In this document: positions 19,670 through 52,380 of the stretch, one piece after another | Numbering within the stretch: the first letter of the stretch is position 1 | Layout: every line of letters starts with the position of its first letter | Assembly: GCA_965238175.1 (NCBI GenBank) | Contig: CBDEGZ010000003.1 | Location: 96,001-160,000, forward strand | DNA: 64,000 nucleotides | Reading direction: 5' to 3' | Source of the DNA: Gammaproteobacteria bacterium | GTDB taxonomy: Bacteria > Pseudomonadota > Gammaproteobacteria > CAJXQU01 | Notes under the pieces: generated by a model | What the model saw: the letters and a program-made list of their open reading frames with translations, nothing else | Databases searched by the model: none | Told to the model about the DNA's origin: nothing | Made by a program: the position numbers and the translations under genes

Positions 19670-20644
19670 TTACTGACTTAATTCAAACAACGCTTCTTCT
19701 GCCACGACTGCAGGTAGAGGAATATATCCATCTTTGACAACCACTTCCTGACCTACTTTTGACAATATCATTTTAACAAATTCAAGCTCCAATGGTGAAA
19801 GTGATTTATTAGGATGTTTGTTTACGTAAACATATAAAAAACGACCTAAAGGATACTTACCCGTTACGGCATTTTCTGGCGTAGCATCGATAAATTCCCC
19901 ATCTGGTTTTTTAGTCAAAGGAACTGCACGCACACCCGAAGTTTTATAACCAATACCAGAATAACCGATACCGTTGACCGATTTAGTAATGCCTTGTACG
20001 ACAGAAGCAGAACCTGGTTGCTCATTCACAGAATCTTTATAGTCACCTTTGCAGAGTGCTTTCTTTTTGAAGTAACCATAAGTACCAGAAACGGAATTTC
20101 GTCCATATAGTTGGATAGGACGGTTAGCCCATTCACCCGTTAAACCTACGTCACCCCAGTTTGTAATGTCTGCATCGTGTTTACATTTTCGAGTTGCAGA
20201 AAAGATCGCATCCACTTGTGGAATAGATAAGCCTTTTACAGGGTTATCTTTGTTAACATAGACTGCAAGAGCATCGATTGCGACTGGAACAGCGGTAGCT
20301 TTATAGCCATGTTTTGCTTCAAAAGCCGCTGCTTCTTTGTCTTTCATTTTACGACTCATAGGGCCGAAATTTGAAGTACCTTCTGTTAGTGCAGGTGGTG
20401 CTGTTGAAGAACCAGCCGCTTGAATTTGGATATTAACGTTAGGGTATAAACGTTTAAATTCTTCACCCCAGAGCGTCATTAAGTTTGCTAGCGTATCAGA
20501 ACCGACACTAGAAACATTGCCCGATACACCACTCGCTTTTTGGTAATCCGGAAGTCCCGAATCCGCTTCAGCATAAGATCCCACCGGGATCATGAACGCA
20601 GCGGCAATTGCACTTGCTCTAAAGAAATTTTTATTGAAAAACAT
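19670..20644 (-). CDS. pstS: Phosphate-binding protein PstS (copy 1)
   Basis: Signal peptide, [35 protein letters not shown]. Confidence 0.95.
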
Positions 20645-20685
20645 TTTATTACCTTCCTCAGGATGACTGTTAATGAATCACCGAC

Positions 20686-20741
20686 AGTATGATCAGGACA
20701 GGTAACAAGTTTGTTACAGAAATATTACAGCTTGATGACAA
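20686..20741 (-). promoter_or_regulatory. Four-repeat Pho-box array and -10 of pstS1
   Basis: Minus strand TTGTCAT-N4-CTGTAAT-N4-CTGTAAC-N4-TTGTTAC, then CATACT 10 bp downstream. Confidence 0.85.
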
Positions 20742-20882
20742 GCTGTGTTTTTATAATTAAAGGAAATTATTTAGGCCTATAGAACAGTTAGTTAACCTGA
20801 TGTGATGGTCTCCTCCCCCTAACGGCATCTAGGTGCCATGATTGAACTGACATACACACAATCAAAAGAGGAGAAGACCAAA

Positions 20883-21896
20883 ATGAAGACTACAACAATC
20901 GGGTTAGACATAGCAAAAAACGTATTTCATGCTGTCTGCTGTAATCAACAAGGGCGTATAATCAAAAAGAAAATGTTAAAGCGAGCGCAGGTACTCTCCT
21001 TTTTTCAATCTCAACCTCCTTGTTTAGTCGCAATAGAATCTTGTGCAACGTCACAGTATTGGGCCCGAGCGATACAACAACAGGGACATCAGGTGAAATT
21101 ACTACCACCTCAGCATGTTAACGCATTTCTAATCGGCAATAAGAATGATTATAACGATGCCTTGGCCATCGCCGTTGCTGCGAAACAACCTCATTTAAAA
21201 AGTGTGGGCATTAAATCAGTTGAGCAACAAGACAACCAGGCACAACATAAAGCAAGAGACTTAGCGGTCAGACAAAGAACCGCATTATGTAACCAAATGA
21301 GAGCGCTTGTTGCAGAATATGGCATTAGCCTTCGTCCCGGCCTAAATACCCTACGTCAATCTATCCCGTTGCTATTAAGTGATGAGAACGAACGGTTGTC
21401 CGTTACTTTCAAAAGGATACTGCGCCAGCTAAAGGAACAATGGCAATCACTTGATGCCTGTATTGCGACATTTGACCAATTGATCATTCAATCGGCAAAA
21501 AACAATGCGATTTGCCAACGCTTACAAACTATTCCAGGGTTTGGGCCGATGGTCTCGAGCGCGTATTTTAATGAAGTGGGAAACGGCGCTCATTATCACA
21601 AAGGGCGCGATGTGTCCGCCTCATTAGGACTTGTTCCACGACAGTACAGTAGTGGTGGTAAAGAGGTGCTACTGGGGATCAGTAAACGCGGCAATAAATA
21701 CCTTCGTTGTTTGTTAATTCTAGGCGCGAAGGCCGTGGTATCAAGAGCCAAAACGAAAGGCGATAAACTGAGTCAATGGATTAATCGTTTAGTTGAGACG
21801 CGGGGGCATAATCGAGCGTGTGTGGCGTATGCCAACAAAATGGCAAGAATGGCCTGGGCTATAACGGTTTCTGGTGATGACTACTCACCGGCCTAA
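20883..21896 (+). CDS. IS110-family DEDD recombinase/transposase
   Basis: IGLDIAK, IES, KNDYNDA (RuvC-like DEDD) and PRQYSSGG (catalytic Ser region); start at MKTTT after GAGGAG. Confidence 0.95.
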   Translation: MKTTTIGLDIAKNVFHAVCCNQQGRIIKKKMLKRAQVLSFFQSQPPCLVAIESCATSQYWARAIQQQGHQVKLLPPQHVNAFLIGNKNDYNDALAIAVAAKQPHLKSVGIKSVEQQDNQAQHKARDLAVRQRTALCNQMRALVAEYGISLRPGLNTLRQSIPLLLSDENERLSVTFKRILRQLKEQWQSLDACIATFDQLIIQSAKNNAICQRLQTIPGFGPMVSSAYFNEVGNGAHYHKGRDVSASLGLVPRQYSSGGKEVLLGISKRGNKYLRCLLILGAKAVVSRAKTKGDKLSQWINRLVETRGHNRACVAYANKMARMAWAITVSGDDYSPA

Positions 21897-22142
21897 ATAG
21901 AGAGAACAAATCATTTCAACGAATTGCGAAGGTAAAACTAAAGATGGCATAACAGGTCAAACCAGCCTATTGAAAACCTGTCGAGCTCAGGGGTAACTAA
22001 TACCGATAACCTGATAAGGAAAATAGGCGCGTAATACATCCAGGTCAGAAGTTGAAAACTTCATTGAAGGCCGTATATATGACAGCAATCCTGTCCCTGT
22101 TATCTGAATGTTTTATCTTGCAATACGGGAGGAGACCATATA
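21897..22142 (+). ncRNA. Predicted bridge/seekRNA of IS1111-type element, copy 1
   Basis: Outer stem ATAACAGG/CCTGTTAT; stem GCCTATT/AATAGGC enclosing target-matching CGAGCTCAGG and TAACCTGA; donor-matching ACATC and ATATATGA flank hairpin GAAGTT/AACTTC. RNA ends are not determined. Confidence 0.75.
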
Positions 22143-22152
22143 TGAGATCGGT

Positions 22153-23052
22153 TTAAGCCACGGTTGCTAATGCCCGTTTTAAGTAATTAAATTCATCGCC
22201 AGACAAGTTCAAAGACGGCTTATTCTCTTTCAGACAATAAGCGATCAATCCACCGATAAGATTAAGCATAAAACCATGTACAGAGCGGTGTCTGGAATGT
22301 TCTATCTGAGTAATGTTCTTCAACTGGTCATTAATGGTTTCAATAATAAAACGTCTGCTCAGCATGGCTCTGTCCCAGAGCGATGTAGCTTTTGCCTTCA
22401 TGTTTTTTCGAACATTTGTCACCAACTCCACGCCTTTATCAAACAATTCGCTCGATAAGGCTTGGCTGATATAGCCCTTATCCCCGTAAAGTTTGCCACT
22501 CATCGCCTTGCACAGCTCGGGAACAGGCTGACGGTCATCGATATTTCCCGGGGTGATTTTGGCTGCCAGGATATCCCCCTGATGATTGGTGATAAGGTGT
22601 AACTTGAAACCATAAAACCAACCCATTGTGCCTCGACCTCGCTGGGCGATGTCTTTGAAAACACGGTGGCGTGGAATACGGAGGTTGTGGCACACTTTTA
22701 AGGCGGTTGAATCAACAAACGCAACACCTGTGGGTTTCCCTTTAAGATAAGAAAAGTAGCTACATAAAGGAACGAGCACTGTCGGCATCACCTCCAGAAA
22801 CCGCGTGTAGCTTAGCATCTGTGGAAAATCCTCGGCATAGAATTGAGCGATAAACCCTTTGTAGTAGTTCTTGAAATCGCGATGGTTGGAGTGATGAAAC
22901 AGGATGATGATAGTCATGATTTCGCTGGCTTGCATTCGCCCAACTCGACGGCGTTTGCGTTGCCCATCGGTCAGTAATTGTTGTTCCCACAACGGTATGA
23001 AGTGCTGACAGAAGTCATCGACATCACAAAAGATTTCAACTAGTTTATCCAT
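22153..23052 (-). CDS. IS982-family DDE transposase
   Basis: EIFCDVDDF start, FVDST, GWFYGFKLH, GDKGYIS, RFIIETINDQLKN, IEHSRHRS. Confidence 0.93.
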   Translation of the reverse strand: MDKLVEIFCDVDDFCQHFIPLWEQQLLTDGQRKRRRVGRMQASEIMTIIILFHHSNHRDFKNYYKGFIAQFYAEDFPQMLSYTRFLEVMPTVLVPLCSYFSYLKGKPTGVAFVDSTALKVCHNLRIPRHRVFKDIAQRGRGTMGWFYGFKLHLITNHQGDILAAKITPGNIDDRQPVPELCKAMSGKLYGDKGYISQALSSELFDKGVELVTNVRKNMKAKATSLWDRAMLSRRFIIETINDQLKNITQIEHSRHRSVHGFMLNLIGGLIAYCLKENKPSLNLSGDEFNYLKRALATVA

Positions 23053-23143
23053 TGGCTTGTTCTCCTTTTTTTTCAATTGTTTGGTCACAATTGATCTGAT
23101 CGGGGGACAAGCCGTTAGTTCATTTCCTTAAGCCGAGTTGGGG

Positions 23144-23863
23144 TTAGTTACGATATTTTTCTTTGTCTTCCAGTCTTCTTTGGTGTCGCAGATTAACTCC
23201 GTGGATAAGATAGATCACATATTCGGCGATATTTCCTGCATGTGCTCCTAGCCTTTCAAGTGATTTCAACATTAACGTGATGTTGATCGAATGTCCGAGG
23301 TTTCTCGCATCTTCAAGTACAAAGGTTGTTAAATGCCTTAAAGATGATTGAAATTCAGCATCAAGCTCCTGATCAGCATTGAGTAAAGATTTTGCTAATT
23401 TTGAATCTAATTGATCAAAAGCAGTTAGTGCGGTTTCTAATAATTCCAATGACAATCTGCCCATTACAGAAATATCACGCAATTGGTTTTTTGCAGGCTT
23501 CGGTTGATTAGCATCTGAAAGTGACTCAATAATGTGTGCGATTCGAGCTGCTTCGTCACCAATTCTTTCAAGATCGACAACGATCCTGGAGAATGCCATC
23601 GTAATCCGCAGATCTTTGGAGACTGGACCACGTTTGTTAATGAGATCAATTATCTTATTATCAATAGCAACTTCCATGGAATCGACTTCCGGCTCTCTTT
23701 CCAAAACCAGTTTGGCCGCTTTTTCATCCTGTTCGAGCAATGCTTGAAGCGCGAGTCGACTTTGATCTAAAGCCAAGCCGCCCATTTCAAGTATTTGTAA
23801 GTGCAGATTATTCAAGTCACCATCAAAGCGCTGATCGGCATGTCCTTCTAGTGGTTGATTCAT
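23144..23863 (-). CDS. phoU: PhoU (copy 2)
   Basis: MGGLALDQ, DLERIGDEA, LERLGAHAGNIAE; last gene of pst2 operon. Confidence 0.9.
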   Translation of the reverse strand: MNQPLEGHADQRFDGDLNNLHLQILEMGGLALDQSRLALQALLEQDEKAAKLVLEREPEVDSMEVAIDNKIIDLINKRGPVSKDLRITMAFSRIVVDLERIGDEAARIAHIIESLSDANQPKPAKNQLRDISVMGRLSLELLETALTAFDQLDSKLAKSLLNADQELDAEFQSSLRHLTTFVLEDARNLGHSINITLMLKSLERLGAHAGNIAEYVIYLIHGVNLRHQRRLEDKEKYRN

Positions 23864-27770: not shown

Positions 27771-28016
27771 TATATGGTCTCCTCCCGTATTGCAAGATAA
27801 AACATTCAGATAACAGGGACAGGATTGCTGTCATATATACGGCCTTCAATGAAGTTTTCAACTTCTGACCTGGATGTATTACGCGCCTATTTTCCTTATC
27901 AGGTTATCGGTATTAGTTACCCCTGAGCTCGACAGGTTTTCAATAGGCTGGTTTGACCTGTTATGCCATCTTTAGTTTTACCTTCGCAATTCGTTGAAAT
28001 GATTTGTTCTCTCTAT
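27771..28016 (-). ncRNA. Predicted bridge/seekRNA, copy 2
   Basis: Reverse complement of 21897-22142. Confidence 0.75.
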
Positions 28017-29030
28017 TTAGGCCGGTGAGTAGTCATCACCAGAAACCGTTATAGCCCAGGCCATTCTTGCCATTTTGTTGGCATACGCCACACACGCTCG
28101 ATTATGCCCCCGCGTCTCAACTAAACGATTAATCCATTGACTCAGTTTATCGCCTTTCGTTTTGGCTCTTGATACCACGGCCTTCGCGCCTAGAATTAAC
28201 AAACAACGAAGGTATTTATTGCCGCGTTTACTGATCCCCAGTAGCACCTCTTTACCACCACTACTGTACTGTCGTGGAACAAGTCCTAATGAGGCGGACA
28301 CATCGCGCCCTTTGTGATAATGAGCGCCGTTTCCCACTTCATTAAAATACGCGCTCGAGACCATCGGCCCAAACCCTGGAATAGTTTGTAAGCGTTGGCA
28401 AATCGCATTGTTTTTTGCCGATTGAATGATCAATTGGTCAAATGTCGCAATACAGGCATCAAGTGATTGCCATTGTTCCTTTAGCTGGCGCAGTATCCTT
28501 TTGAAAGTAACGGACAACCGTTCGTTCTCATCACTTAATAGCAACGGGATAGATTGACGTAGGGTATTTAGGCCGGGACGAAGGCTAATGCCATATTCTG
28601 CAACAAGCGCTCTCATTTGGTTACATAATGCGGTTCTTTGTCTGACCGCTAAGTCTCTTGCTTTATGTTGTGCCTGGTTGTCTTGTTGCTCAACTGATTT
28701 AATGCCCACACTTTTTAAATGAGGTTGTTTCGCAGCAACGGCGATGGCCAAGGCATCGTTATAATCATTCTTATTGCCGATTAGAAATGCGTTAACATGC
28801 TGAGGTGGTAGTAATTTCACCTGATGTCCCTGTTGTTGTATCGCTCGGGCCCAATACTGTGACGTTGCACAAGATTCTATTGCGACTAAACAAGGAGGTT
28901 GAGATTGAAAAAAGGAGAGTACCTGCGCTCGCTTTAACATTTTCTTTTTGATTATACGCCCTTGTTGATTACAGCAGACAGCATGAAATACGTTTTTTGC
29001 TATGTCTAACCCGATTGTTGTAGTCTTCAT
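28017..29030 (-). CDS. IS110-family DEDD recombinase/transposase
   Basis: Translation identical to 20883..21896. Confidence 0.95.
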   Translation of the reverse strand: MKTTTIGLDIAKNVFHAVCCNQQGRIIKKKMLKRAQVLSFFQSQPPCLVAIESCATSQYWARAIQQQGHQVKLLPPQHVNAFLIGNKNDYNDALAIAVAAKQPHLKSVGIKSVEQQDNQAQHKARDLAVRQRTALCNQMRALVAEYGISLRPGLNTLRQSIPLLLSDENERLSVTFKRILRQLKEQWQSLDACIATFDQLIIQSAKNNAICQRLQTIPGFGPMVSSAYFNEVGNGAHYHKGRDVSASLGLVPRQYSSGGKEVLLGISKRGNKYLRCLLILGAKAVVSRAKTKGDKLSQWINRLVETRGHNRACVAYANKMARMAWAITVSGDDYSPA

Positions 29031-29127
29031 TTTGGTCTTCTCCTCTTTTGATTGTGTGTATGTCAGTTCAATCATGGCACCTAGATGCCGTTAGGGGGAG
29101 GAGACCATCACATCAGGTTACTTAGAG

Positions 29128-52215: not shown

Positions 52216-52380
52216 ACCTCAGATCAATTTAAGAAACGGTCACTAATGTCTGCTTCAGGCAATCAAATCATCACCTGATAAGTTCAAAGAAGGTTTGTTT
52301 TCTTTCAAACAATAAGCAATTAATCCGTCAATGAGGTTGAGCATAAAGCCATGTACAGAGCGGTCTCTGGAGTGCTCTAT
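52216..52380 (-). pseudogene. Diverged IS982 3'-end remnant with uninterrupted right IR
   Basis: Aligns by eye with 22146-22305 (e.g. CCATGTACAGAGCGGT); begins ACCTCAGATCAATTTAAG. Confidence 0.8.

Follow-up and report, generated by a model that had tools for sequence, protein, structure and literature searches.

What places one insertion sequence (IS) at a precise point within the terminal repeat of another? This question is raised by a 64,000-nucleotide stretch from the genome of a Gammaproteobacteria bacterium (contig CBDEGZ010000003.1, positions 96,001 to 160,000; hereafter the window, whose own numbering is used unless a contig is named), in which an IS1111-type element lies inside the end of an IS982-family element between pstS and phoU. 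With a probability that we put at roughly 0.88, the insert is an IS1111-family IS with a DEDD transposase and a seekRNA/bridge-type guide RNA in its 3' region, located at ACC^TGA (the caret marks the insertion point), 3 bp inside the IS982 repeat. The nested structure had been proposed in a first-pass annotation made from the letters alone, and it was borne out by the order read along the window (pstS, spacer, TAGTTA, ACC, insert, IS982 remainder, TAGTTA, phoU) and by an otherwise intact IS982 element of 1005 bp. The perfect TAGTTA duplication was likewise recovered, the same six bases following the other IS982 end. The placing of the insert inside the right inverted repeat also stands, but the insertion point lies 3 bp into the repeat (ACC^TGA) and not 6 bp. 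This boundary was set by the family convention of a 7-bp left and a 3-bp right extension; with it, the rejoined flanks are the same as the uninterrupted form at free sites. Removal of the insert gives an IS982 end reading ACC^TGAGATCGGTTTAAG, which matches the other end at 13 of 18 positions, with five mismatches. The ACC at 20795-20797 is split by the insert from the remaining IS982 repeat; in intact relatives within the same genome, TAACC runs straight into it.

According to the passages of Siddiquee et al. (2024, PMC11187229) used here, IS1111 transposases have 330-350 amino acids and carry the motif GL-P----S(t)G, the subterminal repeats, 11-13 bp long, are extended by 7 bp on the left and 3 bp on the right, and a long non-coding region lies downstream of the gene for the transposase (tnp). 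The insert encodes a protein of 337 amino acids (352 from an alternative upstream ATG at 20838) that contains GLVPRQYSSG. Its subterminal repeats ATGGTCTCCTCCC (20805-20817) and GGGAGGAGACCAT (22127-22139) pair at 13 of 13 positions, and 246 bp of non-coding sequence (21897-22142) follow tnp, compared with 85 bp before the ATG at 20883. The protein matched PF01548 (DEDD/RuvC-like N-terminal domain, E 3e-16) and PF02371 (C-terminal domain, E 6e-20), and it scored 302.9 bits against NF033542, the "IS110 family RNA-guided transposase" profile (cut-off 140), over positions 1-341 of 343. Its sequence match to the IS621 transposase structure 8wt6 was weak (E 2e-4) and confined to the C-terminal domain. 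Judged by its sequence, the insert has each of the features that these passages give for the IS1111 family, and the identity first read from the letters is upheld by the transposase profiles, the motif, the 13-bp subterminal repeats, the 7-bp and 3-bp extensions and the 3' non-coding region. The homologue search of the transposase returned no named IS; the nearest protein from other genomes was 83% identical, and a megablast of the element against plasmids gave zero matches.

The 3' non-coding region holds two 8-nt segments that correspond to the two sides of the insertion point, in targets of the form TAACC^TGAGATCGG (with the longer left flank, TAGTTAACC^TGAGATCGGTTTAAG). The right guide CGAGCTCA would pair with the top strand on the right-hand side of the cut. 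The left guide TAACCTGA is identical to the top strand on the left and hence complementary to the bottom strand, with which it would pair. Both guides overlap on TGA, and the top-strand match stands 5'. This arrangement is in line with the IS1111 seekRNAs as described in the same passages of PMC11187229, which have the top-strand match 5' of the bottom-strand one and an overlap between them in the target.

The target guides were found to covary with the flanks across 11 related elements whose non-coding regions were aligned. The relatives comprise G003 (same genus), G031 (another family, three copies) and the public elements L041-L047 and L067 (transposases 68-78% identical). The left guide becomes TAGGTTGA, TAACTTGA or CGATCTGA in relatives with correspondingly altered left flanks: G031 carries guides TAGGTTGA and TATGCCCA at TAGGT^TGGGCTGA (TAGGT^TGGGC), L044 carries TAACTTGA at TAACT^TG, and L041 carries CGATCTGA and TAACCTCA at AGATC^TGAGGTTA. 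The last of these, located at 1417-2755 of a Halioglobus metagenome-assembled genome (MAG), is a natural retargeting, with both guides changed beside a transposase that is 77% identical. In L042 the guides are TAACCTGA and CGATCTCA at TAACC^TGAGATCG, while CGAATTCA faces ^TGAATTCG in G003 and TATACCCA faces ^TGGGTATA in both L045 and L046. An exact match of the right guide to the right flank (8/8) was obtained for G003, L042, L041, L045 and L046.

In a consensus fold of the 11 elements, the two target guides face each other across one internal loop that conserved stems close, and a second loop contained ACATC, which matches the element's left end, and TATATATGA, which matches its right end. 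In this structure 95.8% of cells were paired, as compared with 33-44% when the partners were slid; nine compensatory pairs were counted against 1-5 in the slid controls, and the covariation score was reached by none of 500 shuffles.

The genome (3.35 Mb in three contigs) carries 24 complete IS1111-type copies that are 99.9-100% identical, together with a further copy cut off where a contig starts, two solo left ends of 37 bp each and a left-end fragment of 80 bp. Among the left junctions, 27 of 28 read TAACCTGA and the remaining one AAACCTGA, so that placement at ACC^TGA is not due to chance. The first-pass annotation had proposed to count copies inside and outside IS982-type repeats, and the majority were found inside. 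Indeed, when an IS982-type repeat was called from a right flank within 3 mismatches of such a repeat, 16 of the 24 complete copies lay in IS982-type terminal repeats, at the one fixed position ACC^TGA and in a shared orientation with the right end towards the host interior. Two of these hosts are the exact IS982 variant of the window (the window copy and C3:1170724), one is an IS982 variant with 83% DNA and 87% protein identity, in which the opposite end was hit, and 13 are derivatives resembling miniature inverted-repeat transposable elements (MITEs), whose repeat ACC^TGAACTCGGGATAAG is the left repeat of the 83%-identical variant. Four of the MITE-type hosts were delimited, each with a matching 6-bp duplication: three are ~204 bp long (TAAGTA, TATTTA, TAACTA) and one ~1.4 kb (TAAATA). 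As for the remaining eight copies, three follow ACC^TGAAC and are abutted directly by the repeat of a high-copy IS, one lies in a 27-bp mini-palindrome built from two repeat tips, one lies within the high-copy IS and three occupy unclassified sites.

The window itself contains a second, identical copy at 27771-29112 on the minus strand, inside a ~204-bp MITE with IS982-type repeats and the duplication TACTTA; the other end of this MITE (window ~27565) has a free TAACC^TGAACTCGG site. The two solo left ends (G000:C3:1393269-1393344; L029, L030) stand head to head with a 14-bp overlap, both preceded by TAACCTGA and without body or right end, and the pair may be the scar of an aberrant recombination between two copies. 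Diverged relatives occur at C3:2357906-2358383 (79% identity over 387 bp) and C3:1154711-1154798 (90% over 80 bp). Both follow TAACCTGA, which suggests that diverged and truncated relatives are older insertions of the same lineage.

Occupancy of the available sites was then compared with the second guide. On both strands of the genome, TAACCTGA occurs 244 times, against ~130 expected from base composition; these comprise 27 junctions, 25 guide copies inside the element and 192 free sites. When sites were graded by the match of the next five bases to the right guide (GCTCG), occupancy climbed with the match: one site was occupied and 106 were free at 0/5, one and 55 at 1/5, five and 18 at 2/5, seven and nine at 3/5, and nine and three at 4/5, the single 5/5 site being free (0 occupied, 1 free). 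The five full IS982-family copies offer ten ends, of which those reading ACCTGA were all occupied (3/3) and those reading ACCTCA, ACCCCA or ACTCCA were all free (0/7 occupied). More generally, 16 of 22 IS982-type ends reading (T/A)AACC^TGA were occupied, and MITE ends preceded by TAATC rather than TAACC were free. The high-copy IS (repeats beginning TGTAGAA, e.g., at window 33462 and 53728) carries TAACCTGACAGTC in ~70 copies, with TAACCTGACAGTCGG in a hairpin just past its open reading frame (ORF). Only one of these ~70 copies is occupied (C3:589233), which fits the poor right-guide match.

The left guide spans the final TA of the host duplication and the first six bases of the host repeat. 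The earlier observation that the target guide begins with a TA lying in the IS982 duplication was therefore correct, this TA being the last two bases of TAGTTA. Duplications of the form TAnnTA were seen at the window copy and at the delimited MITE-type hosts, and TA precedes all ten ends of the full IS982-family copies. The TA of the left guide thus matches nearly every host end because the IS982 lineage makes TAnnTA duplications. TA also stands before ACCTGA at four insertions without a recognisable IS982-type repeat (three unclassified, one in another IS), which argues that the guide reads TA rather than merely meeting it there. One copy has A in place of T, hence the first target base is not strictly required.

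The same nesting was found in other genomes. In Pseudoalteromonas (L067), an insert whose protein is 78% identical occupies TACATA followed by ACC^TGAGATCTGG of an IS982-family element; the host transposase shares 61% identity with that of the window IS982, and a second TACATA follows the partner repeat. The Paraglaciecola host (L047) is a ~240-bp MITE flanked on each side by TAAATA. TAACC^TGA with right flanks that resemble a repeat was also seen in a Colwellia MAG (L042) and in Shewanella frigidimarina (L043), with no IS982 transposase within ~1.25 kb of the insert in either genome, and the right flank in the same-genus relative G003 is TGAATTCGGGATAAG. Each of the six elements in which the left guide is still TAACCTGA lies at a TGA-type site, and an IS982-type host is confirmed by sequence in three of them (the window IS982, the L067 IS982 and the L047 MITE). 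Since the nesting recurs in Pseudoalteromonas and Paraglaciecola, the association is a property of the lineage and not of a single genome. The element specialises in IS982-type ends, those of full elements as well as of MITEs, in this genome and in related marine gammaproteobacteria.

Members of the IS982 family are ~1 kb long, have terminal inverted repeats and make a short target duplication. The host element fits this family through its length without the insert, its terminal repeat match and TAGTTA on both sides, and its transposase scored 279.4 bits against NF033520 (cut-off 130) and E 5.5e-78 against PF13612. A second copy, 100% identical, lies at C3:1172074-1173075 within the composite at C3:1170724, which has the duplication TAACTTA. 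The other IS982 repeat in the window (23127-23144) is not a target, being without TGA. A diverged remnant at window 52216-52380 (C3:148219-148380; ~160 bp, 79% identical to IS982 positions 3-163) had been taken as an independent record of the uninterrupted form of the interrupted end. The remnant exists and reads TAACCTCAGATCAATTTAAG, but it documents the uninterrupted form of a variant end only, since it has ACCTCA and not ACCTGA. The TCA variant is also present in two full IS982 copies, all the ends of which are unoccupied.

The features of the locus are collected in Table 1. The stop codon of phoU consists of the last IS982 base and two bases of the duplication, and the pre-insertion sequence would give the same TAA. 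IS982 entered exactly at the phoU stop, and the 2.35-kb composite now parts phoU from pstS. In a same-genus relative (L121, pstB 83% identical), the gap between phoU and pstS is 184 bp, without an IS.

Table 1. Features of the nested IS1111-type/IS982 locus, in window coordinates.
Feature	Position	Strand	Remark
pstS	19670-20644	-	followed by a ~145-bp spacer before TAGTTA
IS982 target-site duplication, left copy (TAGTTA)	20789-20794	.	its final TA is the first two bases of the IS1111 target
ACC, outermost three bases of IS982 terminal repeat	20795-20797	-	side downstream of the IS982 transposase gene
IS1111-type element, complete, 1345 bp	20798-22142	+	
Left end of insert	20798-20817	+	7-bp extension TGATGTG and 13-bp subterminal inverted repeat ATGGTCTCCTCCC
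DEDD (IS110/IS1111 family) transposase, 337 amino acids	20883-21896	+	contains GLVPRQYSSG
Conserved structured region, putative seekRNA/bridge-like RNA	21952-22100	+	consensus fold, 35 pairs
Right guide CGAGCTCA	21982-21989	+	reverse complement TGAGCTCG; complementary to top strand right of insertion point
Left guide TAACCTGA	22007-22014	+	identical to top strand left of insertion point
Putative donor guide ACATC	22036-22040	+	complement of GATGT in left end; invariant in 11/11 aligned elements
Putative donor guide TATATATGA	22074-22082	+	matches right end (CATATA plus TGA)
Right end of insert	22127-22142	+	13-bp subterminal repeat GGGAGGAGACCAT and 3-bp extension ATA
IS982-family element, remainder	22143-23144	-	starts TGAGATCGGTTTAAG; 1005 bp once ACC is added
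IS982-family DDE transposase ORF, 311 amino acids from GTG	22153-23088	-	uninterrupted; from profile searches
Second IS982 terminal repeat	23127-23144	-	top strand ...CTTAAGCCGAGTTGGGGT; outside inwards ACCCCAACTCGGCTTAAG
IS982 duplication, right copy (TAGTTA)	23145-23150	.	overlaps phoU stop codon
phoU	23144-23863	-	

Several observations weigh against the reading of the insert as a guided element. The right guide matches the present IS982 end at seven of eight positions and not at eight. The single-sequence fold of 21925-22115 was unremarkable (z = -1.36), and an Rfam scan of 20700-23200 with E up to 1 returned no bridge or seekRNA family, but a chance snoRNA hit at E 0.99. The putative donor guides were assigned by eye, and one position beside ACATC varies in relatives without a matching change in the left end. 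Besides, the sole site perfect for both guides (C3:393937-393970, TAACC^TGAGCTCGGGG) is empty. This site is the far arm of the 27-bp mini-palindrome, 27 bp from its occupied partner in the near arm, and interference from the neighbour is possible.

According to the mechanism that we propose, RNA from the 3' region would be made and bound by the transposase, and the element would be copied out as a circle, by analogy with ISEc11. The circle junction would assemble a candidate promoter, TTGCAA-17-TATGAT, where the integrated junction reads TATGAG or TATGAA; a promoter and terminator scan gave counts not above those of shuffles. Once loaded with the RNA, the transposase would pair with both strands of the target TAACC^TGAxxTCG, and insertion would follow in a single orientation. 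At the locus, 1345 bp lie between ACC and what is left of the repeat, a separation that would disable that IS982 end. Such disabling is the most likely outcome of the separation, at somewhat better than even odds. For ISEc11, a circle forms only where the target-derived flanks are intact on both sides, and the uninterrupted target was not detected after circle formation (passages of PMC11187229), so that the block may not readily reverse.

One observation would fit hitchhiking as well as immobilisation: the insert is present in each of the two copies of this IS982 variant, and their duplications differ (TAGTTA and TAACTTA). In that case, a 2350-bp IS982::IS1111 composite would have been moved by the IS982 transposase, and the two composites would derive from one insertion. 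Indeed, the two 100%-identical IS982 copies hold the insert at the same point (TAGTTA at C3:116795, TAACTTA at C3:1170724) and an empty copy of this variant is absent from the genome. However, site-specific insertion with high occupancy of good sites accounts equally well for this pattern. The other IS982 variant (83% in nucleotides, 87% in amino acids) was hit at its opposite end, ACCTGA ends of full copies are invariably occupied and 16 of the 22 IS982-type ends are filled; moreover, the repeat tip stands 1345 bp away from the remaining repeat. As a test of composite movement, the copy groups that share right flanks (three, three and two copies) were followed outwards. Identity stopped at ~1225-1257 bp in both groups of three, at the end of the high-copy IS, and at 197 bp in the pair, inside the MITE. 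In the larger groups, the shared flanks therefore run as far as the boundary of a third IS, the high-copy one, and not to that of the composite, and shared-flank identity without a composite boundary gives no evidence for hitchhiking. Movement of the composite is regarded as improbable, and guided insertion into IS982-type ends is preferred.

A collapsed or misplaced repeat copy between pstS and IS982 could also have produced the junction as an artefact of assembly. The 25 near-identical 1.3-kb copies are typical spots of assembly failure, and one of them is cut by a contig start. However, contigs built from the public reads of a single sample enter both junctions from unique sequence: one (X1 record 1) covers 20500-20819, from the unique flank into the insert, and another (X2 record 14) covers 22116-22510, from the insert into IS982. 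They extend 22 and 27 bases into the repeat, which falls below the 31-base bridging rule, and were not counted as bridging; the read runs are probably from the assembly's own sample and hence are not independent support. Read depth was 139 for the insert, 6.7 for the flank and 10.2 for IS982, ratios that fit ~21 insert copies and ~1.5 IS982 copies. Since the junction sequence is also the same at 23 other complete copies and the same architecture occurs in two other genera, an artefact is very improbable, and the junction, whose possible misassembly had been raised by the first-pass annotation, is not evidently misassembled. Recognition by protein alone, in which the transposase itself reads TAACCTGA and the 3'-region matches are incidental, is just as remote, for although the left target half overlaps the element's own left end (TGA), both 8-nt segments shift with the flanks in relatives with transposases 53-78% identical, and in the passages of PMC11187229 the RNA is essential and reprogrammable in four IS1111-family members, ISEc11 being retargeted by altering only the RNA segments and the donor flanks.

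RNA-guided insertion at IS982-type ends provides a natural data set for IS1111 targeting, with 24 identical copies, 192 free half-sites and a match-graded occupancy in one genome. It illustrates that a guide can span the boundary between a host element and the duplication which that host makes, so that the parasite depends on the target preference of its own host. Whether one mobile element limits another or rides on it can also be tested in this case; no new mechanism is revealed. A more speculative view, which we consider unlikely, is that this IS1111 lineage is a dedicated parasite or brake of IS982 elements and MITEs, engaged in an arms race written in guide and repeat sequence. The left guide may be fixed on the junction of the TAnnTA duplication and the repeat tip, the right guide may drift after host variants (TGAGCTCG here; TGAGATCG, TGAACTCG, TGAATTCG and TGAACTCT in relatives), and host repeats may escape through positions 4-6 (ACCTGA to ACCTCA or ACCCCA). 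If so, the spread of IS982 and its MITEs in the genome would be capped as a side effect.

Among the elements with which the insert can be compared, ISKpn4, ISPa11 and ISPst6 target attC or REP sites. These three and ISEc11, whose reported target is GTGAAAATACTG, share with it the downstream non-coding region, a transposase of 330-350 amino acids with GL-P----S(t)G, 11-13-bp subterminal repeats extended by 7 bp and 3 bp, and a top-strand match that stands 5' and overlaps the other, according to the passages of PMC11187229; the targets differ, and the transposase here is only distantly related. IS1383 specifically targets the inverted repeats of IS1384 in Pseudomonas putida H, as stated in the title of Muller, Lauf and Hermann (2001, Mol Genet Genomics 265:1004; listed in PMC11208160, PMC11208158 and PMC11187229). 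At the level of that title, it is likewise an IS110/IS1111-family element targeting the terminal inverted repeat of another IS, but the host IS, the target sequence and the bacteria are different. IS4321 and IS5075 enter the 38-bp terminal repeats of the Tn21 family (Partridge and Hall, 2003, J Bacteriol 185:6371, as cited in PMC11187229). The analogy with them drawn in the first-pass annotation holds as far as that citation describes them: they are IS1111 members with subterminal repeats that take one position and one orientation in the terminal repeat of a transposon. They use a Tn3-family transposon as host; the hosts of the present element are an IS982-family IS and its MITE derivatives, and its target also reaches 2 bp into the host duplication. 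In IS621, a two-loop bridge RNA pairs with both target and donor strands around a short core that they have in common (Durrant et al., 2024, PMC11208160; Hiraizumi et al., 2024, PMC11208158). It is a member of the IS110 group, with the RNA in its left end and a reversed guide order, whereas the RNA region described here is in the right end. The element thus works like a bridge RNA system, yet it falls in the IS1111 group and is not of the IS621 type. Among the papers that a library search on IS1111 with IS982 returned, none dealt with such an association by title or abstract. The nesting behavior and the seekRNA/bridge RNA mechanism are already known, while the IS982 and MITE host family, the target reaching into the duplication, the graded occupancy and the right-guide variants that track host repeats across genera are new.

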